Positions 628 to 59,136 of a DNA stretch of 64,000 bases are shown one piece after another. The stretch is taken from the NCBI GenBank assembly GCA_964612665.1, contig CAZTCI010000001.1:380896-444895 (forward strand). The letters are read 5' to 3'. The DNA comes from an uncultured Planctomycetales bacterium. Its GTDB lineage: Bacteria > Omnitrophota > Gorgyraeia > Zapsychrales > JAHFFX01. Below the pieces are notes generated by a model. That model searched no databases. It was not told the DNA's origin and saw only the letters and a list, made by a program, of their open reading frames with translations. Position 1 is the stretch's first letter, and each line of letters starts with the position of its first letter. Position numbers and translations under genes: made by a program.

Positions 628-1275
628 TCAATTGAAATCTTTAAGCAAACTTTCCAGTTTTTCTTTAAGATTCTCTTTCGCTCGATTCAAAAGCGATTTA
701 ACAGCCTTAACAGAACAATTCATTGTCTGCGCGATCTGTTCATAAGAAAATTCTTCATACCGCTGCAAGATAATGGCCAAGCGCTGATTCTCAGGGAGTT
801 CTTCAATGGCTTTTTGAATGAGAACGGTTTTTTCCTGCTGTAAAAGATTATGATCGGGACTGGAAGCGGCCTGCGCTTCAATGTGAATCTTGGGCTGATC
901 TGCTTCTTCTCCGAAACTTTGCTCGAGTGATAGATCTTTCTTTTGAGGGCGGCGCAATTCATTAAGCGCTGTATTTTTGGCGATAGTAAAAGCCCAGGTT
1001 TGAAATTTGGAACGAGGATGATATGACGCGGCGCTTTTATAAATGCGGACGAAAACTTCCTGTGTTAAATCTTCGGCGAGCTCGCGATCGTTTACAAAGC
1101 GGTATATGAAATTTAAAATACGCGCGTAATATTTGCGCATAAGGGTTTCAAAAGAAGCCGTGTCGCCTTTTTGAAAAGCTAATAAGAGCTGGACGTCGGG
1201 GTCTTGGGTGTAATCTTTATGGGAAGGGAAAAAGGACACTTTAGTTTGGGAGAAAATCTCAAAATAAATTTCCAA
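628..1275 (-). CDS. RNA polymerase ECF-type sigma-70 factor (sigma-24 family)
   Basis: region 2 (ARILNFIYRFVNDRELAEDLTQEVFVRIY) and region 4 HTH (FSYEQIAQTMNCSVKAVKSLLNRA) motifs; track start is a TTG so the true start is uncertain. Confidence 0.85.
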   Translation of the reverse strand: MEIYFEIFSQTKVSFFPSHKDYTQDPDVQLLLAFQKGDTASFETLMRKYYARILNFIYRFVNDRELAEDLTQEVFVRIYKSAASYHPRSKFQTWAFTIAKNTALNELRRPQKKDLSLEQSFGEEADQPKIHIEAQAASSPDHNLLQQEKTVLIQKAIEELPENQRLAIILQRYEEFSYEQIAQTMNCSVKAVKSLLNRAKENLKEKLESLLKDFN

Positions 1276-1379
1276 ATTACAAGCACCAAATTACAAATAA
1301 ATCTTAAATTCCAATGTCAAAACAACAAAACTTGAATTTTGGAATTTCGAATTTGATTATTATTTGGTGCTTGTAATTT
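1274..1379. promoter_or_regulatory. perfect 18-bp inverted repeat (aaattacaagcaccaaat / atttggtgcttgtaattt) spanning the sigma-factor upstream region
   Basis: arms at 1274-1291 and 1362-1379 with ~70 bp AT-rich spacer containing a nested aaattccaa/ttggaattt repeat; lies between ECF sigma start and upstream gene stop. Confidence 0.5.
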
Positions 1380-1393
1380 AGAAATTAACTCAA

Positions 1394-8004: not shown

Positions 8005-8017
8005 AAAAAAAAATAAA

Positions 8018-8054
8018 AGAGCCAAGATGAATTTTCATCTTGGCTCTTTTATTC
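8018..8054 (+). terminator. rho-independent terminator of protease gene
   Basis: agagccaagatgaattttcatcttggctct hairpin followed by tttatt. Confidence 0.8.
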
Positions 8055-8690: not shown

Positions 8691-8699
8691 TCTTCGCTC

Positions 8700-9040
8700 C
8701 TTTGATTGAAGATTAGGCTCTCCCCGATGATTCTATCGGGGTCCCGATTCCTCAAAATGATTTAGAAAGTCGGGAGAAGCTTTGTCTAGACCGCGCTGAT
8801 TTCAGCAGGGGCCCAGCCCTGAACCCAACGTGGTTCAGGGGTCCTGCCCTTTCGGACAGTTTACCTTTTTCAAAAATCGGTAATAGGTTTTCTCTCCTAT
8901 AACCGCATCAAATATAACATATTATTGCCACTCGGCAAGGTGGGATGAAGTAGTGCATGCGCGGCGTAAAGCGCCGGGGGCCTGGCCTCTAATTAAATCC
9001 GCGGGCCAGGCCCATCGCTTCGTCTACATATTTAGAGTAG
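8700..9040. other. GC-rich structured intergenic region (possible ncRNA), unclassified
   Basis: multiple GC stems in AT-rich context: ccccgatgattctatcgggg, ccctgaacccaacgtggttcaggg, gggcctggcc...ggccaggccc; weak similarity to RNase P P4/P15 strings (gaaagtcggga, gcggcgtaaagcgccg) but not convincing. Confidence 0.3.
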
Positions 9041-9044
9041 GGAT

Positions 9045-12401: not shown

Positions 12402-12462
12402 AATTTTTTCCTTTCTTTTAACCAGCACAACTGGGCAACTGATAACTGGCAAACTAAAAAAC

Positions 12463-16409: not shown

Positions 16410-16634
16410 TTAGGCTTCTAAAAAGTCGCCGACTGAAATGCCAGCCTGTTTTAAGATCGCCCGCAATGTACCTTGCGGTATATCGCCTGGATGATTAGGA
16501 ATAGTTGTTCGTTTTCCAGTGGCAGGATTCCACCAGATTTCGTGACTGCCAGCGGCTTGCCGGTCAAATTCGAAACCTAATTGTCGTATTTTTTGAATTA
16601 CTTTACGATAATTGTAGCCTGCAAGTGTTCCCAT
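16410..16634 (-). CDS. hicA: HicA-family toxin
   Basis: 74 aa; GSHEIW....TTIPNHPGDIPQGTLRAILKQAGI matches HicA consensus. Confidence 0.85.
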   Translation of the reverse strand: MGTLAGYNYRKVIQKIRQLGFEFDRQAAGSHEIWWNPATGKRTTIPNHPGDIPQGTLRAILKQAGISVGDFLEA

Positions 16635-16879
16635 TAAGCAATTCCAACGGCGAGTGGCATATCAATCGACTTGATAATTTTATTTCTAATTTTGGCAGGG
16701 AGTTTACCTTCATGTTCACGATAAGATTCAATTAATTTGCGCGCAACATCGCGGGCAATTTCTAGAGTTTCATTAATTGTACGGCCTTGAGCAACTAAAC
16801 CAGGAAGTTCATTACTTGTCGCCAAATAATAACCTTCGGGAAGTTTCTCAAGATGTACAGAAAAAATTATTTCATTCAT
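16634..16879 (-). CDS. hicB: HicB-family antitoxin (start MNEIIF at 16879 with SD ggaggtg)
   Basis: YYLATSNELPGLVAQGRTINETLEIARDVARKLIESY = HicB/UPF0150 motif; 1-nt overlap with hicA. Confidence 0.8.
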   Translation of the reverse strand: MNEIIFSVHLEKLPEGYYLATSNELPGLVAQGRTINETLEIARDVARKLIESYREHEGKLPAKIRNKIIKSIDMPLAVGIA

Positions 16880-16911
16880 AGAATTCACCTCCAGATTAAG
16901 TATAGCATGAT

Positions 16912-16984
16912 GTCGTCGTTCGTGGTTCGTTGTTCGGGGCATTCGTACTTTAATTCCACGAACAAACGAAAAACGAACGACGAG
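16912..16984. repeat. intergenic hairpin with hexamer-repeat arms (gttcgt... / ...acgaac)
   Basis: gtcgtcgttcgtggttcgttgttcg ... cgaacaaacgaaaaacgaacgacgag; between BFN-domain gene stop and hicB start. Confidence 0.6.
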
Positions 16985-16985
16985 A

Positions 16986-17390
16986 TCATGTCTTAAAAAA
17001 CGCCGCCTTATTCAAAACTTCTTCTTCGACAAAAATCGCGGCGCCGGAGCGGACGGCCAGGGCAATCCCATCAGAAGGACGGGCGTCAACGAGTTTTGTC
17101 TGGCCGTCAGATGTTTTAATTTCCAGCTTCGCGTGAAAGGTATTGTCGACGAGTTTGTCAATGACGAGCCGTTCAAGTTTCGCGCCGAGGGCATCGATCG
17201 TGGTTACCAGCAAATCATGAGTCATCGGCCGCGGGACCTCAAGCCCAGAGAGTTTCATCTTAATACTTGAGGCTTCCAAAAAACCGATCACAATTGGAAA
17301 CTGGCGTTCGCCCTTCTTTTCTCGAAGGACAATGATTTGATCCTGGCGTTTTTCGTCGATTATAATTTTGCTGAGTTCGACTTGGATCAT
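16986..17390 (-). CDS. bifunctional nuclease (BFN/DUF151) domain protein
   Basis: 134 aa; RPMTHDLL...ARPSDGIALAVR...AIFVEEEVL conserved DUF151 residues. Confidence 0.7.
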   Translation of the reverse strand: MIQVELSKIIIDEKRQDQIIVLREKKGERQFPIVIGFLEASSIKMKLSGLEVPRPMTHDLLVTTIDALGAKLERLVIDKLVDNTFHAKLEIKTSDGQTKLVDARPSDGIALAVRSGAAIFVEEEVLNKAAFFKT

Positions 17391-17408
17391 TTATTCTCCT
17401 GATTATAG

Positions 17409-17475
17409 TTTTCCAGTTAACCAGTTTCCAGTTTACAAGTTTAGAAAATATCGAACTGGAGAACTGGCCAACTAA
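17409..17475. repeat. intergenic hairpin element with tandem ccagtt arms and complementary aactgg arms
   Basis: ttttccagttaaccagtttccagtttacaagtt...cgaactggagaactggccaactaa between BFN gene and nrdR. Confidence 0.7.
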
Positions 17476-17967
17476 TTATTTTCGATTCTTCTTTTTAATT
17501 TTCTTCTGTGCTCTATTCTTATCCAAAATAACCTTCAGTTCTCCCATAAACTGATTAATGTCCCGAAACTGACGGTACACCGACGCAAAACGCACGTAAG
17601 CGACTTCATCAAGACTGGCTAAAGTATTCATGATGAGTTCGCCTAAATCCTTGGCTTCAACTTCGCGGTCGTATTTTTTTTGAACCGCACGCTCGATTTG
17701 GGTCGTGATCTCTTCAATCTTTTCAATGCTGACCGGACGTTTTTCGCAGGCCTTCATTAACCCCGCGATAATTTTTTTGCGGTCAAACGGCTGGCGCCGG
17801 CCGTCGCGCTTAACGACCATAAGCGGCACTTGCTCGACGTATTCGTAAGTTGTAAACCGGCGTTCACATTTTAAACATTCCCGCCGCCGCCGGATCGAAG
17901 CCCCATCCTTGCTTAATCGCGAATCGATGACTTTAGTTTCTTTGTAGAGGCAGGTCGGGCATTTCAT
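17476..17967 (-). CDS. nrdR: transcriptional repressor NrdR
   Basis: 163 aa; MKCPTCLYKETKVIDSRLS...RRRRECLKCERRFTTYE zinc ribbon + ATP-cone. Confidence 0.95.
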   Translation of the reverse strand: MKCPTCLYKETKVIDSRLSKDGASIRRRRECLKCERRFTTYEYVEQVPLMVVKRDGRRQPFDRKKIIAGLMKACEKRPVSIEKIEEITTQIERAVQKKYDREVEAKDLGELIMNTLASLDEVAYVRFASVYRQFRDINQFMGELKVILDKNRAQKKIKKKNRK

Positions 17968-17970
17968 ATT

Positions 17971-18045
17971 TCAGTTTACCAGTTCTCCAGTTAACCAGTA
18001 ACCAGTCGATTTTCTAAACTGGCCAACTGGAAACTGGATAACTGG
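17971..18045. repeat. intergenic hairpin element, ccagtt x4 / aactgg x4 arms
   Basis: tcagtttaccagttctccagttaaccagtaaccagtcgattttctaaactggccaactggaaactggataactggctaa between nrdR start and glyA stop. Confidence 0.75.
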
Positions 18046-19293
18046 CTAACTCAAAAGCGATTGATATAAAGGGAATTTCTTTGTCAACTCCACTACTTCC
18101 TTCCGGACTTTGTCCAACGCCTTCTCATCATCTTTATGCGTTATCGCTTCATCAATCAAAGCGGCAATGGCGGTCATGTCTTTTTCCTTCATGCCGCGGG
18201 TTGTGACCGCCGGTGTGCCAATGCGAAGACCGCTCGTCACCATTGGCGGCGCGGGATCAAACGGGATTAAGTTTTTATTAACCGTGATCTGCACGAGATC
18301 CAAAACATGCGCAGCGTCTTTTCCAGAAATATTTTTAGGACGCAAGTCCACCATAAAAAGATGGTTGTCCGTTCCACCGGCGACAATGCGGTAACCTTTT
18401 TTCGCAAGTTCCTCGGCCAATTTCTTTGAATTAACAATGATTTGTTCTTGATATTTTTTGAATTCGGGCGCGAGGGCTTCTTTGAAGGCAACCGCTTTTC
18501 CGGCGATCACATGCATTAAAGGTCCGCCTTGAATTCCTGGAAAAATCGACATGTCGACTTTCTTGGCGAATTCTGCCCGGCACAAAATCATGCCGCCTCG
18601 CGGACCGCGCAACGTTTTGTGGGTTGTCGTCGTCACAAATTCGGCAAAAGGAACAGGATTCGGATGGAGACCTGTTGCAACCAGCCCCGCAATATGCGCC
18701 ATATCAACGAAAAGATATGCGCCAACCTTATCACAAATTTCACGAAAACGTTTGAAATCAATTATACGCGAATACGCCGAGGCGCCGGCCAAAATCATTT
18801 TCGGTTTATGTTCCAACGCCAGTCGTTCAATCTCATCATAATCTAACAATTCAGTTTGCGGATGGACTTTATAGGAAACAATATTGTAAGTTTTCCCGGA
18901 GAAATTAATTTTGTGCCCGTGTGTCAAATGACCGCCGCAGGCCAAGTCCAGCGCTAAAACGGTTTCGCCGTTTTTTAAAACCGACATGTACACCGCCATA
19001 TTCGCCTGAGATCCGGAATGCGGCTGCACGTTGACATGTTCGGCGCCAAAAAGTTTTTTGGCCCGTTCAATCGCCAGGTTTTCCACGACGTCAACGTTCT
19101 CGCATCCGCTATACCAACGCGCCGCCGGATATCCTTCGGCATATTTGTTCGTCATGACCGAACCTTGCGCTTCCAAAACCGCTTCAGAGACGAAATTTTC
19201 AGAAGCGATGAGCTCCAGATTGTCGTTTTGTCGTCGGATTTCTTTTTGAATGGCGTTGTAGACGTCGAGGTCGGTTGTTTTCAAGTGTTGCAT
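18046..19293 (-). CDS. glyA: serine hydroxymethyltransferase
   Basis: 415 aa; full-length SHMT similarity incl. PLP-lysine region [14 protein letters not shown]. Confidence 0.97.
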
Positions 19294-19357
19294 TTATTAC
19301 TCCTTTTATTCGAATAAACTGAAGTAGACACCAGACAGGTCGCAAGACACAAGAAAT

Positions 19358-19840
19358 TTATGTGTCATGTGTCCTATGTCCTATTATCTTTTTATCGCAA
19401 ACCTTTTTCTCAATCTGCCGAATCTGCCTCACCCGCCGGGCGTGGCGTCCGCCGGTGAATTCCGTCATCAACCAGGCTTGAATTAAATCCGGCATTTCGT
19501 GCGGCGGCATAAATTTGGCGCCTAAAACTAAAATGTTCGCGTCGTTATGTTCCCTCGATAAAATGGCCGCTTGTTTATGATAACAAAGCGCCGCGTTAAT
19601 GCCATGAACCTTGTTGGCGGCAATCGTGTGGCCAATGCCGGTCATGCAGACTAAAATGCCTTTGGCTTTTTTGTTGGCGGCAACCGCTTCAGCGACTTTA
19701 AAGGACAGCTTAGGATAATCGCAGGGCTCTTCATCGAAACTCCCGACGTCAATAACATCATAATTCAAACGCGCGAGCATGTCTTTGATTTGACTTTTAA
19801 GCTGAAACCCGCGGTGATCGGCGCCTATGTAAATTTTCAT
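19358..19840 (-). CDS. rpiB: ribose-5-phosphate isomerase B
   Basis: 160 aa; MKIYIGADHRGFQLK... RpiB/LacAB family. Confidence 0.9.
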   Translation of the reverse strand: MKIYIGADHRGFQLKSQIKDMLARLNYDVIDVGSFDEEPCDYPKLSFKVAEAVAANKKAKGILVCMTGIGHTIAANKVHGINAALCYHKQAAILSREHNDANILVLGAKFMPPHEMPDLIQAWLMTEFTGGRHARRVRQIRQIEKKVCDKKIIGHRTHDT

Positions 19841-19852
19841 AGTCTTAAATAG

Positions 19853-19890
19853 TTTTCCAGTTGACAGTTAAAAACTGGAGAACCGGCAAA
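19853..19890. repeat. intergenic ccagtt/aactgg hairpin element (short copy)
   Basis: ttttccagttgacagttaaaaactggagaaccggcaaa between rpiB start and tsaC-PTP stop. Confidence 0.6.
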
Positions 19891-20979
19891 CTAAATCAAC
19901 TTCGCAATCTTCTCAATCGCCTCTTTAATCGTCCACAAACATTCTTCATAAGCGTTAAATGTTTTGCCCATCGGGTCAGAGATATCAATGTCGTCGGATT
20001 CCCAGCGGCCCAAGTTCGCAAATTCTTTAAGGAGATAAACCCGTTTTTCAACTTCCGGCACTTTATCTAAAATCTGCTGGCGGTGTGAACGCGTCATGAC
20101 CAGAATCAAATCCGCTTTCTTGAGCATGATCCGGCTGACCGGCTGGGAAAGATGACCGCTCGCGTCAACTCCTTCGCGTTTGAGTACCTCTATCGTGTCA
20201 CCACTCGCTGGGGCCGTAATAAAAACACCTGTCCCGGTGGAAATAACGTCAACATCTCGACGGCTGCCGAGCGCTTTTTTAAGAAGATACTCAGCCATGA
20301 CCGAACGGCAGCTGTTACCTGTGCACACAAATAAAACTGTTTTGCGCCCGATGGCTTGGTCAACATCCGATTGATGAATTTTTCCTTCGCGCGTCACGCG
20401 CGGCGGGCCGTTTGTAAAATCAACTATCGAAGAGCTAATGCCGATCCGGCAGGGCCCAGCATCCAACGCGACATCAACCAACCCATCCAGATCTCTCAAC
20501 GCTTCCTGACAATTAGTCGGCGCCGGATTATTTTCAAAATTGGCCGACGGAGCAGCCAAAAGACATTCGGAAACCTCAACCAATCCCAGCGCCACCCGAT
20601 GATCCGGCATGCGCACACCAATTGTTTCGCCGGCTTTTTTACCTGGGATAACAACGGTCAATGGGCCAGGCCAATATTTATCAACCAATTTATATAAAAT
20701 GGGTTCATTAAATGCGGTTAAACTCAAAACCTGAGAACGTTTTGAAATCAACACGGCGAACGGTTTTTGATCTGAACGTTTTTTAACTTCCCTTAAACGC
20801 GCAAGCGCTTTAGGGTTATTTAAATTTGCGCCCACGCCATAGACTGTTTCCGTCGGAAAAATAACCAGTCCGCCTTGCCGAATAATTTTCGCGCAGGCAG
20901 CCAATTTATCCATTTCTGGAAATTCGGGATGTATGGGGATAATCTTAGTTTTCATATCAGTTCTTGGCTCATAGCTCAT
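19891..20979 (-). CDS. tsaC: fusion: L-threonylcarbamoyladenylate synthase (TsaC/YrdC domain) + low-molecular-weight protein (Tyr/Arg) phosphatase
   Basis: 362 aa; N-terminal YrdC (IIRQGGLVIFPTETVYGVGANLNNPKA), C-terminal LMW-PTP P-loop (VLFVCTGNSCRSVMAEYL, C-X5-R) and DPMG... D-P loop. Confidence 0.8.
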   Translation of the reverse strand: MSYEPRTDMKTKIIPIHPEFPEMDKLAACAKIIRQGGLVIFPTETVYGVGANLNNPKALARLREVKKRSDQKPFAVLISKRSQVLSLTAFNEPILYKLVDKYWPGPLTVVIPGKKAGETIGVRMPDHRVALGLVEVSECLLAAPSANFENNPAPTNCQEALRDLDGLVDVALDAGPCRIGISSSIVDFTNGPPRVTREGKIHQSDVDQAIGRKTVLFVCTGNSCRSVMAEYLLKKALGSRRDVDVISTGTGVFITAPASGDTIEVLKREGVDASGHLSQPVSRIMLKKADLILVMTRSHRQQILDKVPEVEKRVYLLKEFANLGRWESDDIDISDPMGKTFNAYEECLWTIKEAIEKIAKLI

Positions 20980-21036
20980 TGCTCATGATGTGCTCAAAAG
21001 AATTTCAATGAGCCATGAACCAAAAACTATGAACTT

Positions 21037-22326
21037 TTATATATTAACTTTCTTAAACGCCTTGGCGCCTATATCTCGTCTAAAAAAACATTTTTCAAAT
21101 GTAATGCGATCAACCGCCTTATAAGCGGTTTGAACAGCCTGTTCGATTGTTGAACCCAAACCTGTCACACCTAAAACCCGTCCGCCGGAAGTAACGATTT
21201 CTCCACCGACATTTTTAGTGGCAGCATGAAACACAATGGTGTCTGCAGATTCTTTAATATCACGCAATCCCTGGATTGTTTTTCCTGTTTCAAACGCCCC
21301 CGGATAACCGCCCGACGCCAAAACAACGCAGACACACCGGCGTTTGTCCCATTCCAACTGCATGCCGCTTAAATCTTCGTTGACGCTGGCCAGCATGATC
21401 TCAACCAAATCATTTTTAAACCGCGGAATAATGGCCTGAGTCTCAGGATCGCCAAACCGAACATTATATTCTAATACAAAAGGCCCGCGGTCGGTTAACA
21501 TTAATCCGGCGTAAAGAATCCCTTTAAACGTGTGTCCTTCCTCATCCATGCCGGCGATCGTCGGTTCAACAATGCGCGTTGAAATTTCTTTTAATAAATT
21601 CTTAGAAATGAGATTAGTCGGCGAATACGCACCCATGCCGCCGGTGTTAGGACCTAAATCGTCGTCAAAGATTCTTTTATGATCCTGCGCTGAATCAAGG
21701 ATCACAAAATCCTGCCCGTCGCTGGCAATCAGGATGGAAACTTCTTCGCCTTCTAAAAATTCTTCAATCACAACCCGGGCGCCCGCTTCTTTAAAAATTT
21801 TTTGTTCGAGCATCTGGCTGACAGCTTCCTTGGCTTCTTGAAAAGAATTGCAAATGATAACGCCTTTGCCGGCGGCGAGACCGTCGGCTTTAATGACAAC
21901 CGGATAATTCTTGGGCTTTAAAACCGCCAGGACACGTGCCGCGGCCTGCATATCCGTCACCACGTGAAATTCCGCCGTCGGAATATCAAAGCGTTTCATA
22001 AACTCTTTAGAAAAAACTTTGCTGCCTTCAAGCTGTGCCGCTTCTTTCGTCGGACCAAAAATTTTTAAGCCCGCCTTTTCAAATTGATTTACAATACCGG
22101 CCACCAGCGGCGCCTCCGGCCCAACGACGGTTAAATCGATTTTTTTTTCTTTGGCAAATTTGAGAAGCCCGGGAATGTCAGTTGCCTCTATCGCGACACA
22201 CTTCGCTTGCTGGGCCATCCCGGCGTTTCCCGACGCGCAGAAAATTTCTTTAACCAGCGGACTTTGGCTGATTTTCCAAACCAACGCATGTTCACGACCG
22301 CCGGAACCAATAACTAAAACTTTCAT
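21037..22326 (-). CDS. purD: phosphoribosylamine--glycine ligase
   Basis: 429 aa; ATP-grasp PurD full-length similarity. Confidence 0.95.
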   Translation of the reverse strand: MKVLVIGSGGREHALVWKISQSPLVKEIFCASGNAGMAQQAKCVAIEATDIPGLLKFAKEKKIDLTVVGPEAPLVAGIVNQFEKAGLKIFGPTKEAAQLEGSKVFSKEFMKRFDIPTAEFHVVTDMQAAARVLAVLKPKNYPVVIKADGLAAGKGVIICNSFQEAKEAVSQMLEQKIFKEAGARVVIEEFLEGEEVSILIASDGQDFVILDSAQDHKRIFDDDLGPNTGGMGAYSPTNLISKNLLKEISTRIVEPTIAGMDEEGHTFKGILYAGLMLTDRGPFVLEYNVRFGDPETQAIIPRFKNDLVEIMLASVNEDLSGMQLEWDKRRCVCVVLASGGYPGAFETGKTIQGLRDIKESADTIVFHAATKNVGGEIVTSGGRVLGVTGLGSTIEQAVQTAYKAVDRITFEKCFFRRDIGAKAFKKVNI

Positions 22327-24484: not shown

Positions 24485-24700
24485 TCAATCCTCCGCCTTT
24501 AATCCTGCTTGCTTTAATACGCTATTTAATGTACCCGGAGCAATGTCATGCCCTGGATGTCCAGCAATGGTTACACGTCCAGATTTAAATCGATGCTTAT
24601 ACTGCCTATGGCTTCCTTTACTGGCCTTTTCTCTCCCAACGATAAGGTGTTCTATCATTCCCAGGGAGAAAAGGCCTAGTACTAGACTTTTGCAATGCAA
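24485..24700 (-). pseudogene. hicA: hicA toxin gene with its 5' region replaced or interrupted by an ~84-bp repeat element
   Basis: C-terminal 45 aa (SKGSHRQYKH...VTIAGHPGHDIAPGTLNSVLKQAGL) is classic HicA; first ~25 codons of the track ORF (TTG start) are encoded by the repeat element 24623-24705. Confidence 0.5.
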
Positions 24701-24705
24701 AAGTC
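24623..24705 (+). mobile_element. MITE/REP-like structured repeat, copy 1 (inverted copy at 51996-52079)
   Basis: 83 bp ~92% identical to the reverse complement of 51996-52079; contains 13-bp inverted repeat ggccttttctctc...gagagaaaaggcc plus palindromes tagtacta and acttttgcaatgcaaaagt. Confidence 0.7.
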
Positions 24706-24773
24706 AGTAATTCTGACTATATACCAACCATCGCGTTCAACCCGCCTGATAACATCTCTAATTTTTATGAATT

Positions 24774-25568
24774 TTATATGAACTTTTCTCGGACATAATT
24801 TATTCCATTCTCAAAAATCTTCGCTCCGTCGCCATATGTGCCTTTTGTTTCCAACCGCGTCCAAAACGGATGCTGGGTAAATAAAAAATGTCGCTCCGGA
24901 TGCGGCATCAAACCAAAGACCAAACCTGTTTCATCACAAATCCCGGCGATATCATCGACCGAGCCATTGGGATTTTCTGGATAAAAGGGTTCCCCTCCGT
25001 TTTCAGCGCAATAACGGAACACAACTTGGTTGTTAGTCTTTAATTTTTCTAAAATTTTTTTATTCTGTGGAACAAATTTTCCTTCACCGTGAGCCACCGG
25101 CAGAAAAATCGGCCGATTGATGCCTTTGGTCCAAATCGATTTTCCCGACGGCTTTAAATGAATCCAGCGGTCTTCGAATTTAGAAGAATCGTTTGTCATT
25201 AAAGTGACTTGCTGGGTGAATTGATTCTTGCCTTCAGCGCCGGGCAGAATACCGGCTTTGGTTAAAATCTGAAAACCGTTACAAATACCAATAATCGGTT
25301 TTTTCGCTTCAACGAATTGTTTGATCTGACCGCCTAACCGTAAACGCAATTCGTTGGCCAGAATTTTTCCGGACGCGATATCGTCCCCGTAGCTGAATCC
25401 GCCCGGGATCGCCAAGATATGATAATCCTTTAATTGCTTCCCGCCAGAAATTAATTCATTAATGTGGACCAAATCGACTTGCGCACCGAAATGCTCAAAA
25501 GCGAATTTTGTTTCTTGATCGCAATTGGTGCCCGCGGTTCTAATAATAATCACTTTAATTGTATTCAT
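24774..25568 (-). CDS. purQ: phosphoribosylformylglycinamidine synthase I (glutaminase subunit)
   Basis: class I GATase; likely start MNTIKVIIIRTAGTNCD at 25568 (alternatives 25577/25592); the 310-aa track ORF is a TTG-started over-extension through the GC-rich element. Confidence 0.85.
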   Translation of the reverse strand: MNTIKVIIIRTAGTNCDQETKFAFEHFGAQVDLVHINELISGGKQLKDYHILAIPGGFSYGDDIASGKILANELRLRLGGQIKQFVEAKKPIIGICNGFQILTKAGILPGAEGKNQFTQQVTLMTNDSSKFEDRWIHLKPSGKSIWTKGINRPIFLPVAHGEGKFVPQNKKILEKLKTNNQVVFRYCAENGGEPFYPENPNGSVDDIAGICDETGLVFGLMPHPERHFLFTQHPFWTRLETKGTYGDGAKIFENGINYVREKFI

Positions 25569-25613
25569 TTGATTCATATTATTAGAAGTCATCTCATAAA
25601 TGGTATTGAGCGG

Positions 25614-25733
25614 GCAGCGGGTGCACGGCGAGCCGATTGTGGGAGGAGCCCCCGGCCCGCCGTATCCGCTTGCCGGGGCGGGCACACCGGGCGGAGGGAC
25701 CCACAAACGGTTTGCCGTGACAGGACCCGCTGC
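25614..25733. other. GC-rich structured element B (possible ncRNA/riboswitch-like leader upstream of purQ), homologous termini to element A
   Basis: 120 nt, ~70% GC; termini GCAGCGGGTG...GACAGGACCCGCTGC form a 9-bp closing stem and match element A termini; internal stems (cacggc/gccgtg, ccggggcgggc/gcccgccccgg). Confidence 0.4.
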
Positions 25734-25771
25734 CTTCGCTATTTATGAGATACGTTCTAGTCTTTTATCTT

Positions 25772-25806
25772 AACTGGGTAACTGGAAACTGGCCGAACTG
25801 GCGAAC
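25772..25806. repeat. tandem aactgg repeat tract immediately downstream of purSL stop
   Basis: taactgggtaactggaaactggccgaactggcgaac (5 copies), same hexamer as the glyA-operon intergenic elements. Confidence 0.6.
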
Positions 25807-28716
25807 TTATAACGCCAATGGTTGCTTCCACGCGCTTTTTAAATCATCAATATACGCATTTACGTAAATTTTCTTATCAATTCCATAAATAACAAATTCC
25901 GACGAGGATTCAACCCGCCCGATTTGTCCAAAGGCAATTCCTTTTAATGTACTTTCAAATTCTTTCTGATGCGCCGGATCGACTTCAATGACAAACCGCG
26001 AGTTCGATTCTGAAAACAAAATAGCATCACTGCGGCCTTTTCCTTTAAAAGGAACTTTGTCTAAACGAACGGTCGCGCCTAATCCACCGGCAAAAGCCAT
26101 TTCCGCTAGCGTCACGCCGAGTCCGCCTTCCGAACAATCATGAATCGCACGCGCCAACCCTCGATCGACAATTTGGCTGACGGCCTGAAAGATTTTCTTG
26201 CCGCGGTTTGTATCAACCGTCGGAACCATTTGGCCTAACAAACCATACGTGTCCAAGTAAATCGACCCGCCCAGTTCTTCTCGCGTTTCCCCGATGACAT
26301 AAATAAAATTCTTCGGTTTTTTAAAATCCATGGAGACAACTTTACTCGCATCATCCAAAATTCCGATCGCTGAAATCAAAAGCGTGCCAGGGATCGCGAG
26401 TGATTTTCCATGTTCGGTATATTCATTATATAAACTGTCTTTTCCTGAAATAAACGGCACACCATACCCGATGGCAATTTTATAACACGCTTCCGCCGCG
26501 CGAACTAAACTTCCCAAACGGTCGGGTTTATCCGGGTTTCCCCAACAAAAATTATCCAGGATCGCAATGCGATCGAGCTTTCCTCCGACGGCAATAATCT
26601 GGCGAATCGCTTCATCAATGACCGAGGCCGCCATCCAATAAGGGTCGATCATCCCAAAACGGACATTGATTCCATTCGAAACCGCGATTGCTTTCAGGGA
26701 ATTTAACTTCGGCCGCAAGACCGCCGCATCCGACGGGCCTTCACAGTGAACGCCCACCAAAGGTTTCAAGACACTCGCGCCCTGAACTTCATGATCATAC
26801 TGGCGGATGACCCATTCTTTAGAACAAACATTATAATGACCTAACACCTCTAACAATTTCTTGGTTAACTCCGTCGGGGCGATCCATTTTTCTTTTTTTA
26901 ATTTTGGTGCTGTAAAAATGGCTTCTTTCGTGATCTGTGGAATCCCGCCGTGTAAAAACGCCATCGACAAATCCGAAACCTGAACGCCATTGTAAAAAAT
27001 TTCAAGCTGTTTTGTATCTGTAAATTGCCCAATGACGCTCGCTTCAACGCCTTCGTCGGCAAAAATTTTAGAAAGCTTGGCGATATTTTCTGGTGGGACG
27101 GCTAACACCATACGTTCCTGGGATTCTGAAATCCAAATCTCATGATATTTTAAGCCTTGATACTTAAGCGGAACTTTTTCCAACTCAACGCGACATCCGA
27201 GATGTTCGCCCATTTCTCCGACGGCGCTGGACAATCCACCCGCACCGCAATCCGTAATCGCCGAAAAAAGATTCTGATCACGCGCTTGCAGGAGAACATC
27301 CATTAATTTCTTTTCCTGAATGGGATTACCAATCTGCACCGCGCCGGATGAAATGACTTCGGAATCCTGGGTCAATTCTCCGGAAGAAAATGTCGCGCCG
27401 TGAATTCCGTCGCGTCCAGTACGTCCGCCAGCCACAACAACTAAATCACCCGTGCGCGCTTTTTTGTGCACGCGGTTGTTTGGAATCATGCCGACGTTGC
27501 CGCAAAAAACAAGCGGATTGCCAACAAACCGCCGGTCAAAAAGAATCGCGCCGTTGACCGTCGGGATTCCCATTTTATTTCCATAATCACGAACGCCGGC
27601 CACAACACCTTTCATGACGCGTTTGGGATGAAGCGTTCCGACGGGTAATTCTTTAAACGTCATTTCCGGCGGAGCAAAGCAAAAGACATCGGTGTTGCAC
27701 AAAGGCTTCGCACCTAAACCTGTTCCCAAGGAATCGCGGATAACGCCGCCGACGCCGGTATTAGCGCCGCCGAAAGGTTCTAAAGCTGAAGGATGATTAT
27801 GTGTTTCAACTTTAAAGGTGACATTGTCCTCGTCGTCAAACTCAATCACCCCGGCGTTATCGTAAAAAACTGAGACGCACCAGGGTTTGTCGATTTTTTG
27901 GGTGGCTTTGACGATTGTAGATTTTAAAAGATTTTTAATCAGACGCGTTTTTGTTTTGCCGCCGATTTTTTCTTGATAGCGGATGTTCCCGCGGAAAGTT
28001 TTGTGATGACAATGTTCGCTCCAGGTCTGGGCGATTGTTTCGAGTTCGCAGTCCGTCGGGTCGCGTTGGATTTGGCGGAAATGATTTTGAATGGTTTTCA
28101 TTTCGTTGAGATTCAAGAAAAGCTGGTCTTTTTGGCTAAGCTCTTGGAGCTCTCGATCGGAAGCTTCACGCAGTCTAACTAAAACAAGATCAAATTTATT
28201 GGAGGAAATGTTTGAAGGTGTCGAGGAGGTGACAGGCTTCATTTCCGACGAGACGACATGCTGGATCAATTTGTTGGCCAGAACACGGTTAACAATCGTT
28301 TCAAGCTCACGGTCAGAAACGCGGCCGTAGATAAAATATTTTTTCGCGGTACGAACCGCGCGCACTGATTGAATGCCGAGATCACGAATGCCTTTTAAAG
28401 TTGATTCTTCAACCGGATCCATGACGCCCGGGTTGTAAGCGATTTCAACGGTTTTTAAAGTCTTGGAAAAATTTTTCTGTTTGGCTAGGGTATCGGCTTT
28501 CCCACAAGTGTACACTTGAACAATTGGATCAACTAACAGTTCACGGCCGATTAAGTCTACCTGTTCAGCGGATAAATCCCCGTCGATAAGATAAACCGAC
28601 GTGACCTTGACTTCTTTAACTGAATCAATGCCAAGGTCAAGAATATCCTTGCGAACACTTTCGCCCGCAGCGTCAAAAATACCTTCTCTGTCTTTAACCT
28701 CAATCCGCCAGATCAT
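25807..28716 (-). CDS. purL: phosphoribosylformylglycinamidine synthase II with N-terminal duplicated PurS-like domains (PurS-PurS-PurL fusion)
   Basis: 969 aa; PurL AIRS/AIRS_C repeats, N-terminal ~220 aa with two PurS-like segments. Confidence 0.85.
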   Translation of the reverse strand: MIWRIEVKDREGIFDAAGESVRKDILDLGIDSVKEVKVTSVYLIDGDLSAEQVDLIGRELLVDPIVQVYTCGKADTLAKQKNFSKTLKTVEIAYNPGVMDPVEESTLKGIRDLGIQSVRAVRTAKKYFIYGRVSDRELETIVNRVLANKLIQHVVSSEMKPVTSSTPSNISSNKFDLVLVRLREASDRELQELSQKDQLFLNLNEMKTIQNHFRQIQRDPTDCELETIAQTWSEHCHHKTFRGNIRYQEKIGGKTKTRLIKNLLKSTIVKATQKIDKPWCVSVFYDNAGVIEFDDEDNVTFKVETHNHPSALEPFGGANTGVGGVIRDSLGTGLGAKPLCNTDVFCFAPPEMTFKELPVGTLHPKRVMKGVVAGVRDYGNKMGIPTVNGAILFDRRFVGNPLVFCGNVGMIPNNRVHKKARTGDLVVVAGGRTGRDGIHGATFSSGELTQDSEVISSGAVQIGNPIQEKKLMDVLLQARDQNLFSAITDCGAGGLSSAVGEMGEHLGCRVELEKVPLKYQGLKYHEIWISESQERMVLAVPPENIAKLSKIFADEGVEASVIGQFTDTKQLEIFYNGVQVSDLSMAFLHGGIPQITKEAIFTAPKLKKEKWIAPTELTKKLLEVLGHYNVCSKEWVIRQYDHEVQGASVLKPLVGVHCEGPSDAAVLRPKLNSLKAIAVSNGINVRFGMIDPYWMAASVIDEAIRQIIAVGGKLDRIAILDNFCWGNPDKPDRLGSLVRAAEACYKIAIGYGVPFISGKDSLYNEYTEHGKSLAIPGTLLISAIGILDDASKVVSMDFKKPKNFIYVIGETREELGGSIYLDTYGLLGQMVPTVDTNRGKKIFQAVSQIVDRGLARAIHDCSEGGLGVTLAEMAFAGGLGATVRLDKVPFKGKGRSDAILFSESNSRFVIEVDPAHQKEFESTLKGIAFGQIGRVESSSEFVIYGIDKKIYVNAYIDDLKSAWKQPLAL

Positions 28717-46475: not shown

Positions 46476-46572
46476 ACTAAAAAGGCTTTATCTTGTCAAA
46501 TAATTTTTAGAGAATATTGGTTGGTTTTTTTCTTGGGCTTTCGTCGGGAGTTTGGCGGGTGAGCGGCAAGGA

Positions 46573-46625
46573 AACGCCGGGCGGCCCTGTTCGGCGCAAA
46601 TTTATCGTCAGGGCCGCCCGGCGTT
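46573..46625 (-). terminator. 17-bp perfect GC-rich hairpin downstream of GH5 gene
   Basis: aacgccgggcggccctg-N19-cagggccgcccggcgtt; no strong T-tract. Confidence 0.55.
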
Positions 46626-46648
46626 TACCTAGCTTTCTCATTCCATTC

Positions 46649-49600
46649 TTACGGCGCCTGAATATACCCCTTCAATATTTTCAACAAAGAAGCATTAGGC
46701 AGATGATGTGTTGCCGTATCATATTTCGAAATCTTACGGTTTAAATCATTTAAAGAATCGTTTTGAAAGTCGGCGATGGATTCATCGTCTCCAAAGTGAT
46801 CATACATCCCCCATTCCGACGGATAATCATACATTTTGTATGACCACATCGACCAACTCCAGTTCTGATCATTAAATGTTTTAAGCATCAGATCCCAAAC
46901 GGCCTTGTCACCAAAGCCATTAAATTCACCGACCATGACGGGAACCTGATAAAGCGACTGCTTGGAATAACGTACCTTACCCGACCATTGATCCACCCCA
47001 TCTTGCCCGTCGATCAAATATTTCTGCTCTTCAGCCAAATTCAAAACGCCGATAATCTGGCCGTTTTGATCAAATTTGAATCCGTAATAATGGAATTGAT
47101 ACATAATATTCGTCCATTGAAAAACCGACGGGTTAGGCAACGTGTCCCAATCCTTGTTACTAGGAATTCCTTCCATGACAATAAGGTGTACGGTATCGTT
47201 GGCCCCGCCGCTGGAACCAGGAAGCCGAATCGTCCGATATAACCAATCATATAAACTCCACAGCGCCTGATAACCTTGGCTAATATTCGGATAATATAAC
47301 GGGTCGATGGCCCCGAATGGTTCATTAATTAAATCGTACCCCAACACGACGGTATTCTTTTTATAATGATTCGCAATCGCCCGCCAAAGCTCAGCCGTTC
47401 GTTGACGATAAACTTTATTCGCGGGATTAAAAAGCTGATGATAAAATCCTGCGGACGGACTTTTAGCGGATTGACGGCCCGTATGAAACGACGTGCTCTG
47501 CGATCCCGGCGCGCCGTGCAAATCTAAAAGCACATACATCCCGCGGTCCGCGCACATATCTAAAATCTTATCCACTGCCGAGAAATCATAAAGACCCGGA
47601 ACCCAGCTCCCCTTCGCATTTAAATCACGAATATTACGGTAATATAAAGGAAGCCGGACAAAATTTATTCCCATTCTGAAGAGATTGTTCAAGTCTTCTT
47701 CTTGGATGTAAGTGTTCTGATACGACGTGATCAAACTTTGCATCGAAACATCGCCAAATCTCTGGGACAAAATGCTGCGGATCGTCCAGTCATCCGGAAT
47801 CGACGCTGGCGCCCCGCTTCCTAAAAGCATCCAAGGTTCAAGCAGGAAATAATTTCCCAAGTTGACCCCGCGCAATTTAATGACCGGACCGTTGCCTTGG
47901 TTCTCTCGAAGATCGGTAGCGACGGCTTTAATAAAACCGTTAGGATTATACGCCAATGCCGGACTAAAGTTCGTGGCGTCGATAATCTGTTGATTGGCAT
48001 CAGTCTTAATTCCGCGTACGCGATATGATTTTCCTAACAGCGCCGAAATATTTTTAACCGGTCCCTTGTAAATTTGAACCCACGGCCCGTTTTTGGAATC
48101 GCCGCGCTGGACTTCATAAAGCGTTGTCTGCGGGATTGGAACCAATTGGATAACCCCCTGCTGTAATCTCGCATATTTGATAAGCGCAGGTTTGGGTTGA
48201 TATAAAACAACATCACTCCAATCTGACAGATACGGAACATGCCCATCGCTCGAAGTTGTTTCCCAACGCACACGCAGCGATGCCGGTTGAAGTCGGTTAT
48301 AGTTAAAAAAGTTTTGATGACCCGTATAAACCGTTGTCCATGGACCATCTGACCCAGCCGTACTTTCTTGCAATGTGTAGAACGCTGCCCCGGCGTAGTC
48401 ATTCCATTGAACAACTCCCGTCGGTAAATTGGCCTGATTAATAACCAGCGCAGGTCCTTTGGTCGCACGAATATCATCAAAATAATATGTCCCAGGCCAA
48501 TAGACTTGGAGCTGGATTTTATTTAAATCATCCAAGTTTAAATCCGCCGGCAGCGCGCTCAATGGAACCGATAACTGCGTCCACTGGCCATAATCGGCCG
48601 CCCGTTTTGTCCAGATCGTAAACGGTTCGACATTGTATTTGGGATTGTCCCAATCAAAGAATTGAACATTAACATTATTGGCAAGTCCGTTTTGGGCGAG
48701 CGAATAAACCCAGAACGTCAAGCGGTCATACGGTTTTGGATTTAAAGCTGTCGGATTTAAATCTACGTGCCAGAAATCTTGAAAAGAACAGGCCAATTTC
48801 GAATCGCAGCGGCGTTCTTGAGATTTCATTCCTGTCCCACCCCAAAAATCAAGCGTCTGGAGTTTCCAAGATTGCACGCCTTCATGCGCGAGCGTCGTTT
48901 CCAGATCAATATTACCGTTCCAAGCCCATCCGCAATCGCCTGGATTTCCCGTCGAGCAAGTCCATGGTTCAAACGTTTGATAAACGCGATCGGCGGACTC
49001 AATTTGAATATCATCCAGATAATAATCGCCTGGAAATTCGTTCACAAAATTAATTTTATCAACTGAAGTCCAATCGAAATTATTAGGAAGCTGCGTCAAC
49101 AAAATTGTGATTTGTGTCCATGTTCTAAATTTCGCTTTTTTCGTTGCGAAGACTTCAAAGCCTGAGAAAGCATCGCCTGTGTCTCTATAAATATTTTTAT
49201 CAAAGAATCTCACGCGGACTTCATTATCAGCGGCGTTAGAAGGATCCGCCCAGATCCAAAATGTCAGACGGTCGTTACGGTCGGGCTCAAAGTTGACGTG
49301 ATAAGTTTGAAATTGCGCCGGAATGGTTGTGCCGCCGAAAGAATTATTAGAGTGGACATGCCACGCTTGAACGCCGGCATGCACTTGAGTTGTTGAAAGT
49401 TCCGTGCTCGCGCCGTTTAATCCCCATCCATATTCGGGCGCGCCGCTTGGACTTCCCGGCGGGGGCGGGGTTCCGTTATTTGGTTCGAAATTTTGGTAGA
49501 CATGTCCTAAATTTCCTGCGTTATAAAGCGCGTTGATCTCATTAGACGATAAGACACGATTATAAACGCGTAACTCATCCAACAGCCCGCTAAAAATCTG

Positions 49601-51969: not shown

Positions 51970-51995
51970 AGTTTTTAGACTTATAGCCTCCTACT

Positions 51996-52079
51996 GACTT
52001 TTGCATTGCAAAAGTCTAGTACTAGGCCTTTTCTCTCGGAGAATGATAGAACAACCTTATCTTTGGGAGAGAAAAGGCC
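51996..52079 (-). mobile_element. MITE/REP-like structured repeat, copy 2 (inverted relative to 24623-24705)
   Basis: 84 bp; reverse complement ~92% identical to 24623-24705; intergenic between OM barrel gene start and C39 peptidase gene stop. Confidence 0.7.
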
Positions 52080-52088
52080 AGTAATCAA

Positions 52089-58134: not shown

Positions 58135-59049
58135 TTAGGAAAGTCTCATCTTAAATTTGATGATGCTCTCTCGGATGGAAGTTGATTTTTGATTGGATTG
58201 AATTGTGGCGGCAGACTGGGGCGTTTCGGGCTGGTATTTTTTCGATTGAAGAATTTTTTCTAAATTTGAGGTAAGCGATTCCAAAGGTTTTTCGTAGCCA
58301 AAACTAAACAACGTGTTAATAATGCGCAGGAATTCTAAAATGTATTTAATGGCGTTTTCTAAATTGACGACAACCCCGATATCGGAAGGTAACGGTGAGA
58401 AGATAATATGTTTATCGTCCTGAACCATATATTCATTGTCACCCAAAATACTTGGATGCGAAAAACGCGAACACAGTCTAAAAGTGATTTCGTATTCCTC
58501 TAATAAATTTTTGTCCACTTGTTTGGCCATGTCACGAATCGCTTTTCCAGACCAGGTAACCAGCGCCTGATCGGAGATGATATGAAATTCTTTTTTAAAT
58601 TCATCGACCTTGTCTAAAATCATTTTTTTTCTTTTAAGAAAATTATTCTTTTCATCCGGTGAAGCCGATTCTATTTGTTTTTCCTGCTCGGCCAAATGGC
58701 GTTTAAAAACCACCCACTTATAAGCGACGAAACGTTTAGCCAGATTATTGGCAGATTGTTTGTCGTGGATGATGTATTTTGTGGTGACGAGATTTTCAAA
58801 AAGGGATCTTAACAGGGTTGAAACATCTTGGCCGTAGCCTTGTTCACACAAAATAAGAATTGAGGCGTATGTTTTGATCGAGCGGCTCACGACGAAAAGA
58901 AAGATGCGTTGATAGGCAGGCAAGTCAAAAAGCCGTAACTCGCGTTTGTTAAATTCTTCTAAAAGCGAACGGCCGCAATCATCAACGCTGTGGGCGAGAT
59001 CGAAAAGTTTTTTGTTATTTTGTTGGAGGGATTGGGAGAAGTTGGTCAT
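58135..59049 (-). CDS. hypothetical protein (likely start MTNFSQS)
   Basis: ~305 aa; no recognised domain; track ORF over-extended through GC hairpin. Confidence 0.4.
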   Translation of the reverse strand: MTNFSQSLQQNNKKLFDLAHSVDDCGRSLLEEFNKRELRLFDLPAYQRIFLFVVSRSIKTYASILILCEQGYGQDVSTLLRSLFENLVTTKYIIHDKQSANNLAKRFVAYKWVVFKRHLAEQEKQIESASPDEKNNFLKRKKMILDKVDEFKKEFHIISDQALVTWSGKAIRDMAKQVDKNLLEEYEITFRLCSRFSHPSILGDNEYMVQDDKHIIFSPLPSDIGVVVNLENAIKYILEFLRIINTLFSFGYEKPLESLTSNLEKILQSKKYQPETPQSAATIQSNQKSTSIRESIIKFKMRLS

Positions 59050-59069
59050 AATTTTGATTAATAGATGCG

Positions 59070-59119
59070 TGGGCGTTGGGCGGCCGGCAACGACGCAGCG
59101 CCGCCGGCCGCCCAACGCC
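59070..59119 (-). terminator. 17-bp GC hairpin downstream of pgi
   Basis: gggcgttgggcggccgg-N16-ccggccgcccaacgccc. Confidence 0.55.
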
Positions 59120-59136
59120 CGGCGCTTCTTAATGGA

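Follow-up and report, generated by a model that had tools for sequence, protein, structure and literature searches.

Palindromic arrays of 7–8-nt repeat units behind stop codons in a conserved operon of an Omnitrophota genome

Heptameric repeats are the most abundant of the longer simple repeats in prokaryotes, according to Mrazek (2007) as cited in two later studies (PMC4679880, PMC4692102). In Xanthomonas, arrays of the unit GGGAATC are 89–93% intergenic and mostly lie 0–50 bp away from their 5′ neighbour's stop codon, or overlap it; they typically hold about 4 units, vary in length and sequence between related species, and include 70–75 convergent array pairs per genome that are potential stem-loops (Rehm et al. 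2015, PMC4692102). Here we describe nine repeat elements, seven of them hairpins with internally repetitive arms, in a 64,000-nt stretch of an Omnitrophota genome (GenBank assembly GCA_964612665.1, contig CAZTCI010000001.1, positions 380,896–444,895; hereafter the window). As in Xanthomonas, tandem units of about 7 nt form inverted pairs in intergenic spacers at stop codons. The Xanthomonas arrays, found in a phylum other than Omnitrophota, are dominated by one G-rich, quadruplex-forming motif with a period of strictly 7, and they keep the same loci between species. In contrast, at least five motifs that are not G-rich (CCAGTTn, GTTCGTn, AAATTnn, GCTCATn and GACACnn, none with a run of G) stand side by side here with a period of 7–8, and most orthologous spacers lack the elements. 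Among the papers searched, we found no functional follow-up on heptamer pairs of the Xanthomonas type or on CCAGTT arrays.

Two other classes of extragenic repeat invite comparison. The classical view of REP sequences is that they shield upstream mRNA from 3′ exonucleases, and the STRR sequences of Calothrix and Nostoc are intergenic tandem heptanucleotides, usually in long direct arrays, of which STRR1 has the unit CCCCAGT. To our knowledge, STRR arrays have not been described as operon-internal hairpins. STRR1 has a CCAGT core in common with our elements, in a different phylum. Like REPs and REPINs, our elements are extragenic imperfect palindromes that follow genes inside operons and occur in both orientations. 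REP arms, however, lack internal repeats, and REPs have a conserved tetranucleotide at the terminus and come as hundreds of near-identical copies together with a RAYT gene, whereas in the 64-kb window we found three homologous copies and, among the ORFs scanned, saw no RAYT gene. The cyanobacterial STRR heptanucleotides are also mentioned in the Xanthomonas study (PMC4692102).

The closest sequence match is TAACTGA, a unit of direct arrays known from cyanobacteria, some Bacteroidetes and marine Beggiatoaceae (MacGregor 2015, PMC4679880). These arrays often lie just upstream of start codons without ribosome-binding sites; in Beggiatoaceae they end about 1 nt before the start codon, and there were 169 direct sets against one inverted, in a fixed orientation to the downstream gene, and a role for an RNA-binding regulator of the S1, Csp or CsrA type was proposed (PMC4679880). 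Our (N)AACTGG unit is about one base away from TAACTGA (on the other strand, CCAGTT(A/T) against CAGTTA). The elements resemble TAACTGA arrays in having 2–6 units and an intergenic position, and in one case (the 3′ arm of E5, below) in preceding a start codon that has no Shine-Dalgarno sequence. Unlike them, they are paired as hairpins, with copies in both orientations and with single arrays that are oppositely oriented. They are not TAACTGA direct arrays: their core reads AACTGG, with TAAACTGA found only at the outermost unit of E5. Finally, stem-loops inside operons of Clostridium cellulolyticum set the mRNA ratios of cistrons through their folding energy (Xu et al. 2015, PMC4423207). Those stem-loops also stand at the 3′ ends of cistrons, but they have the ordinary form, with no repeats in their make-up, and are supported by mutants and end-mapping (PMC4423207), whereas our elements are known from sequence.

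All nine elements lie in spacers between co-directional genes:

1262–1391, minus strand: E1, hairpin in the spacer between the genes for a Cys/Met-metabolism pyridoxal phosphate (PLP) enzyme and for an ECF sigma factor
12429–12449, minus strand: E2, single-arm array of three CAGTT units on the mRNA strand, with no inverted partner, in the spacer that precedes an OsmC-like gene
16904–16993, minus strand: E3, hairpin after the bifunctional nuclease (BFN) gene, with 35-bp GTTCGTn/nACGAAC heptamer arms
17407–17475, minus strand: E4, CCAGTT-type hairpin between nrdR and BFN
17969–18055, minus strand: E5, CCAGTT-type hairpin filling the glyA/nrdR spacer
19326–19381, minus strand: E6, weak hairpin of GACAC/GTGTC-type units between rpiB and glyA
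19850–19893, minus strand: E7, short degenerate CCAGTT-type hairpin between tsaC-PTP and rpiB
20951–21033, minus strand: E8, hairpin with GCTCATn/nATGAGC heptamer arms between purD and tsaC-PTP
25772–25806, minus strand: E9, single-arm array of four CCAGTT units on the mRNA strand plus one degenerate unit, directly 3′ of the purS-purL stop (25807)

A preliminary description of the window had taken the building unit to be a tandem hexamer. Tandem Repeats Finder returned periods of 7, 8 and 15 with 2–5 copies, and the unit is instead a six-base core (CCAGTT) followed by 1–2 variable bases, that is 7–8 nt. We counted 10 occurrences of the pattern CCAGTT(N0–3)CCAGTT in the window where 0.01 were expected, always within three spacers (17413–17467, 17979–18045 and 25772–25801), and the arms of E1, E3, E5 and E8 had a self-similarity of 0.41–0.58 at a lag of 7–8. 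Two convergent arrays of one unit make up E1 and E3–E8; E2 and E9 are single arrays. An element was also counted wherever at least three spaced copies of a k-mer were joined, within 60 nt, by its reverse complement in at least two spaced copies. The window contained 6 such elements against 0.12 in shuffled sequences (maximum 2), a density of 9.4 per 100 kb; the glyA loci of other phyla, 1.18 Mb in all, had 1.2 per 100 kb. None of the 6 was inside coding sequence, overlap being limited to the last or first few codons, which agrees with the inter-cistron location given earlier.

Folds were computed for the mRNA (minus) strand and compared with shuffled controls. Stem lengths were 34–52 bp. E1, with about six AAATTnn units of period 7 in a 52-bp stem (periodicity 0.52 at lag 7 in both arms), folded at −50.2 kcal/mol (z −10.2; antisense −39.0), and E5, with about five units of period 7–8 per arm, at −42.5 kcal/mol (17962–18055; z −8.5; antisense −32.7). 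The values for E3 were −41.9 kcal/mol (16900–16995; z −7.9; antisense −46.2) and for E8 −39.7 kcal/mol (z −7.2; antisense −24.3). On the plus strand E4 reads three CCAGTT units and CAAGTT, a loop TAGAAAATATCG, then two AACTGG units and AACTAA; its fold was −25.8 kcal/mol (17400–17480; z −5.5; antisense −20.3). E7 folded at −14.5 kcal/mol (19845–19895; z −4.2), E6 marginally at −20.2 kcal/mol (z −2.1), and E9, which has no partner arm, did not fold (z 0.0 and −1.1).

These results separate the spacers to which CCAGTT hairpins with 3–5 tandem copies per arm had previously been assigned. Two of the four, 17409–17475 and 17971–18045 (E4 and E5), are such hairpins, the third (19853–19890, E7) is a small copy with one exact CCAGTT/AACTGG pair and otherwise degenerate units, and the fourth (25772–25806, E9) is an unpaired array, AACTGG four times plus a degenerate unit on the plus strand. 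The fifth spacer, 16912–16984 with gttcgt/acgaac arms, was correctly recognised as a hairpin (E3), its units being GTTCGTn heptamers. Long imperfect hairpins with repetitive arms were likewise confirmed, with folding energies far beyond shuffled controls in three spacers. The flanking genes lie on the minus strand, so labels such as BFN/nrdR are to be read from right to left. E1, E8, E6 and E2 (1262–1391, 20951–21033, 19326–19381 and 12429–12449) are added here.

A gapless inverted-repeat search overlooked E4 and E5 because their units vary in length. Window-wide local folding of the RNALfold type was swamped by long irregular 130-nt folds inside genes and gave no useful ranking of hairpins; the k-mer array test was the more informative. 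No element matched Rfam 15 at gathering score; at E ≤ 1 the only matches were of 23–28 bits to microRNA precursor models with cut-offs of 72–117 bits, as expected of generic long hairpins. The sense RNA was more stable than the antisense RNA in six of the seven window hairpins, with 22 G-U pairs in the sense folds against 8 in the antisense folds, a pattern seen in both E4 and E5 although the two are inverted copies of each other.

The hairpins are placed tightly against stop codons. In six of the seven, the base of the stem lies −8 to +3 nt from the upstream stop codon, the exception being E6, whose stop codon is in the loop. The stop codon is inside the stem in E3 (BFN, 16986–16988), E5 (glyA, a UAG in the 5′ base) and E7 (tsaC, also UAG), and the stem begins 1–3 nt after it in E4 (1 nt past nrdR), E8 (3 nt past purD) and E1. 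The distance to the next gene depends on its start signal. BFN, glyA and an 81-aa open reading frame (ORF) downstream of BFN (orf81) have Shine-Dalgarno sequences, and there the stem ends 12–25 nt before the AUG (25 nt for E4 and 24 nt for E3), leaving AGGAG, AAGGAG and GGAGG free, respectively. For nrdR, tsaC and rpiB, which have none, the gap between stem and AUG is no more than 1, 0 and 9 nt (E5, E8 and E7, respectively). Subtracting the stem leaves a residual spacer of 0–30 nt.

The preliminary description had offered an attenuator reading. We found no support for intrinsic terminators or attenuators. No element is followed by a U-tract (the tails read AAAACUAUAA, AAAUAUG, GAUAUGAAA and similar) and the terminator scan gave no match at any of them, so the elements are not terminators of this kind. 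The genome does have canonical GC-rich, U-tailed terminators elsewhere in the window (8012–8053). Scans for terminators and promoters returned both classes at chance frequency in the region, with 25 promoter-like sites against 23.6 expected. One of these, a sigma-70-like site matching at 10 of 12 positions (TGGAAA, 17 nt, TATAAT; 17402–17430, minus strand), falls within E4's 3′ arm, upstream of BFN. It would suit a model in which hairpins lacking a U-tract terminate or insulate transcription and new promoters have split the ancestral operon into separately transcribed genes. The same model could draw on E3 and on a hairpin of the relative L208, which stand after BFN where the relatives L081, L083 and L210 have canonical terminators, and on a metagenomic hairpin (L093) between the stop codons of convergent ORFs. 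With stems ending 0–9 nt from the AUG, however, nrdR, tsaC and rpiB have no room for a promoter and leader, and together with the scan results this makes the model very unlikely in our assessment.

Three of the hairpins are related to one another by sequence. E4 on the plus strand aligns with E5 on the minus strand across the arms and the loop TTTAGAAAAT, and in a self-BLAST 17413–17449 matched the reverse complement of 18009–18045 with 89% identity over 37 nt. E7 has both its ends in common with E4 (ATAGTTTTCCAGTT … AACTGGAGAAC(T/C)GGC(C/A)AACTAA), and within the 64-kb window the ends TAGTT...AACTA are common to all three. By this similarity E4, E5 and E7 are homologous copies of one element, one of them inverted relative to transcription. 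Unit numbers vary among the three, and homologous copies that differ by whole units point to copying plus slippage. We looked for signs of a miniature inverted-repeat transposable element (MITE) and saw no direct duplication at the ends of E4, E5 or E7, each of which is palindromic over its entire length; nor did a Pfam scan that covered almost every ORF of 100 aa or more in the window find a transposase or Y1_Tnp domain. The earlier suggestion of a REP-like, lineage-specific family is therefore retained in part: these are homologous extragenic palindromes, but CCAGTT-armed hairpins also occur in unrelated metagenome contigs.

Separately, the window contains a 93-nt dispersed repeat at 24618–24709 and 51992–52084, 94.6% identical and in inverted orientation, comprising two adjacent hairpins. 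The copy at 24.6 kb is inside a HicA-like reading frame, which it appears to interrupt in the manner of a small MITE.

Five distinct unit motifs occupy neighbouring spacers, from which it follows that the property they have in common is the fold and not the sequence. This counts against a single sequence-specific binding protein, and so against the proposal that the arrays are binding sites on RNA (for a translational regulator, S1, Csp or CsrA-type protein) or on DNA. In its favour, the 3′ arm of E5 sets (T/A)AACTG(G/A) units immediately before the nrdR AUG, like the Beggiatoaceae TAACTGA arrays (PMC4679880), and the CCAGTT core recurs in unrelated contigs. The proposal does not sit well with homologous copies in both orientations, with E2 and E9, which read CCAGTT and not AACTGG on the mRNA and follow stops rather than precede starts, or with a 7–8-bp period that does not hold sites on one face of the DNA helix. 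We regard it as the least probable of the explanations considered. An NrdR box or other operator was also considered and rejected, as the motifs vary between spacers.

The genes around the hairpins, identified by Pfam, are all on the minus strand and are listed in the order of transcription:

25807–28716, minus strand: purS-purL
24774–25577, minus strand: purQ
between purQ and purD, minus strand: Band 7 gene, then purM
21037–22326, minus strand: purD
19891–20955, minus strand: tsaC-PTP fusion
19358–19840, minus strand: rpiB
18046–19293, minus strand: glyA
17476–17967, minus strand: nrdR
16986–17390, minus strand: bifunctional nuclease BFN
after BFN, minus strand: orf81 and HicA, CCA/poly(A) polymerase, Macro-NUDIX

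The window has a G+C content of 43%. Its GlyA is 77% identical to that of Candidatus Zapsychrus exili and 75% to that of another Omnitrophota genome; the best NrdR match is 85% identical, and matches at that level and below include Omnitrophica/Omnitrophota entries. An exact look-up of the NrdR protein gave no record. The organism is accordingly an Omnitrophota bacterium, and the collections searched contained no genome of its own species. We gathered 10 Omnitrophota loci through NrdR homologues, and the order tsaC-rpiB-glyA-nrdR-BFN-CCA is kept in all ten. Their spacers are mostly 0–50 nt long and mostly without periodic hairpins; between glyA and nrdR, for example, they measure 11 (L082), 15 (L083), 22 (L208), 4 (L210) and 44 nt (L204). 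Only some relatives (L002, L081 and L208) have periodic hairpins of their own, and these use other motifs: GGTTACA units between tsaC and rpiB in L081, which also has a small hairpin between glyA and nrdR; GTCGCTC/GTGACnn, AGAGATGT and TCAGnnn types in L002; and a GAGTTTAC/AACTCGGC type after BFN in L208. As the orthologous spacers are short and mostly hairpin-free, the comparison shows the hairpins to be recent, lineage-specific gains, made into normal short spacers.

At three of the elements, E9, E8 and E3, the gene arrangement departs from that of most relatives. Compared with most of them, this genome lacks a LOG-family gene between purL and purQ (25578–25806) and purE between purD and tsaC (20956–21036), and has an orf81-HicA module inserted between BFN and CCA (16410–16879).

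E6 has entered a coding sequence. Its 5′ arm is translated as a 7–9-aa C-terminal tail of RpiB (…IIGHRTHDT; 19358–19385), which was absent from all six Omnitrophota relatives compared; the repeat has thus been absorbed into the reading frame. More generally, repeat hairpins distort gene calls, both by adding such a tail and by over-extending start codons. The longest-ORF starts run too far into hairpins or spacers at 628–1275, 16634–16942, 19891–20979 and 24774–25706. Likelier starts are 16879 for orf81, 25577 for purQ (267 aa) and 20955 for tsaC-PTP. The last, inside the E8 stem, is the probable tsaC start and gives a 354-aa TsaC-PTP protein, the length of the relatives' proteins; the start of the ECF sigma factor (ORF 628–1275) is uncertain.

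Several further features of the window were recorded. Beside array E9, the 229-nt purL/purQ spacer contains a 133-nt imperfect hairpin (25609–25741) of 73% G+C, with −84 kcal/mol sense, −88 antisense, z about −6 and no Rfam match. Other GC-rich hairpins are at 2721–2805, 46533–46662 and 59027–59151, with several more in the 354-nt spacer 8691–9044. An 853-aa ORF without a Pfam match carries a 144-nt tandem repeat (54772–55034; 1.8 copies, 81% matches) and more internal repeats at 55506–55820. A tRNA/tmRNA scan of the window found none.

The absence of the hairpins from orthologous junctions also bears on what they could do. The preliminary description had suggested processing sites. On this reading, sites dedicated to RNase III or RNase E, or some other regulated switch in the RNA, would form an evolved device that uncouples the stability of cistrons. 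Stems of 34–52 bp are long enough for RNase III, the hairpins separate functionally unrelated cistrons, and selective RNA processing and stabilisation has a precedent (PMC4423207). But orthologous junctions do not keep the hairpins, which therefore cannot be a regulatory feature of long standing in the operon, and we saw neither an alternative-structure or ligand-type architecture nor a meaningful Rfam match. A dedicated device of this kind is therefore unlikely.

We favour a combined account, to which we assign about even confidence: the elements would be simple-repeat palindromes that arose by slippage and copying, are co-transcribed with the operon, are tolerated through their folding and have a REP-like effect on mRNA stability. 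Its structural and evolutionary part is much firmer than its functional part, since the architecture, non-randomness, placement, recent gain, homology between copies and lack of terminator features are matters of observation. Arrays would grow and shrink by replication slippage. An inverted arm would arise by fold-back or template-switch copying, or the whole element would be copied to a new site, and the elements would settle immediately after stop codons, within the short spacers of an operon that is densely packed. Transcribed with the operon, they would form long imperfect RNA stem-loops. Folding would loop out the inserted 45–130 nt, so that the distance from the stop codon to the ribosome-binding site or start stays about what it is in relatives without an insert. 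We infer that seven insertions in one operon have been tolerated because folding restores roughly this ancestral stop-to-start distance. In E5, for example, the UAG and the AUG would come to lie at the two sides of the stem base, so that translation of the next cistron, and any termination coupling, would survive.

By analogy with REPs, an effect on mRNA stability is plausible. The stem-loops may act as a barrier to 3′-to-5′ exonucleases that protects the upstream mRNA, and possibly as a site for a double-strand RNase (RNase III), leaving cistrons with unequal mRNA stabilities. Selective RNA processing and stabilisation of the kind described in Clostridium cellulolyticum is the way in which they would most likely act.

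Several observations weigh against this combined account. Co-transcription, folding in vivo and a stabilising effect are all deduced from the DNA. The sense RNA was the more stable in only four of seven hairpins of the relatives and in five of ten metagenomic CCAGTT hairpins beside an ORF stop, and the strand asymmetry in the window could come from a transcription-linked C-to-T bias. At E3, and at the L208 hairpin, the position of the relatives' canonical terminators leaves some role in termination conceivable. Six of the hairpins fall within 4.2 kb of the 64 kb, so that any "family" rests on three homologous copies. Moreover, the placement also fits a neutral by-product, since arrays could just keep growing as far as the stop codon and the ribosome-binding site.

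That by-product is the main rival. Slippage-prone arrays, together with palindrome-correcting template switching, would fill the neutral space between stop codon and ribosome-binding site as a mutational or selfish process, and any effect on the mRNA would be incidental. Most relatives have no such element in the orthologous spacers and those that do have another motif, single-arm arrays exist (E2 and E9), one arm was absorbed into the RpiB frame, no consistent sense-strand stability bias is seen outside the window, and hairpins lie at the junctions rearranged by the missing LOG gene and purE and the inserted HicA module. Set against this, seven insertions have been fixed in one essential operon with a ribosome-binding site or start codon usable after each, the arms are still well paired even at the variable spacer positions, and Xanthomonas spacers that carry repeats show more conservation than control spacers do (PMC4692102). 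We consider the neutral explanation possible but doubtful, and retain the combined account.

Similar architectures are found well beyond this genome. A metagenome scan for three spaced CCAGTT units returned at least 120 loci. Among the matches listed, period-9 loci look coding, an inverted ACTGG array adjoins 19–20 of 69 period-7/8 loci, the paired loci are mostly in contigs of 60–68% GC unrelated to this genome, and in 11 of 19 paired loci the stop codon of a long ORF lies −12 to +25 nt from one end. In one metagenomic locus (L170), CCCCAGT units grade into CCCAGTT units. The glyA loci of other phyla (L036, L072, L074, L063 and L022) also have inverted arrays of 7–9-nt units, in Chloroflexia (GATTTTA, TCAGGGA), Vicinamibacterales (TCAGGAA, CAGAATG), Planctomycetales (GTGATTAA), Methylomirabilales (GTTCACA) and a Methanoperedenaceae archaeon (CGCAAAGAA, period 9); several of these have in common a core that contains CAG/CTG.

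Given these paired arrays in unrelated contigs and other phyla, and the published cases, the architecture is neither new nor lineage-specific. The earlier view of the construction as unusual was overstated, heptamer arrays with inverted pairs at stop codons having been published (PMC4692102). What is new is their presence in Omnitrophota; the class itself is known and poorly understood. The Omnitrophota elements have a recurrent YCAGTT(N) core in common with GC-rich contigs from soil metagenomes, with the TAACTGA arrays found in Beggiatoaceae and cyanobacteria, and with STRR1. That the hairpins are the visible trace of some undescribed and widespread process or element, one building 7–8-nt palindromic arrays right behind stop codons in many phyla, seems distinctly unlikely; if true, it would point to a sequence-specific factor shared by all of them, for instance an enzyme that nicks or copies DNA or a protein that binds RNA, and not to plain slippage. 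The recurrence of a CAGTT-type core across phyla is the question that this comparison raises.

For the biology of this lineage, the locus is a compact natural experiment: a conserved operon with seven gained hairpins, set beside relatives that are mostly without them, and thus a clean comparative case for the origin and tolerance of repeat palindromes inside operons. Copies in both orientations and several adjacent motifs suggest that structure, not sequence, is what matters, and that a tightly coupled operon can absorb inserts of 45–130 nt with its stop-to-start spacing kept. If the hairpins do set the mRNA stability of individual cistrons, they would provide a fast-evolving means of retuning the expression ratios of housekeeping genes.

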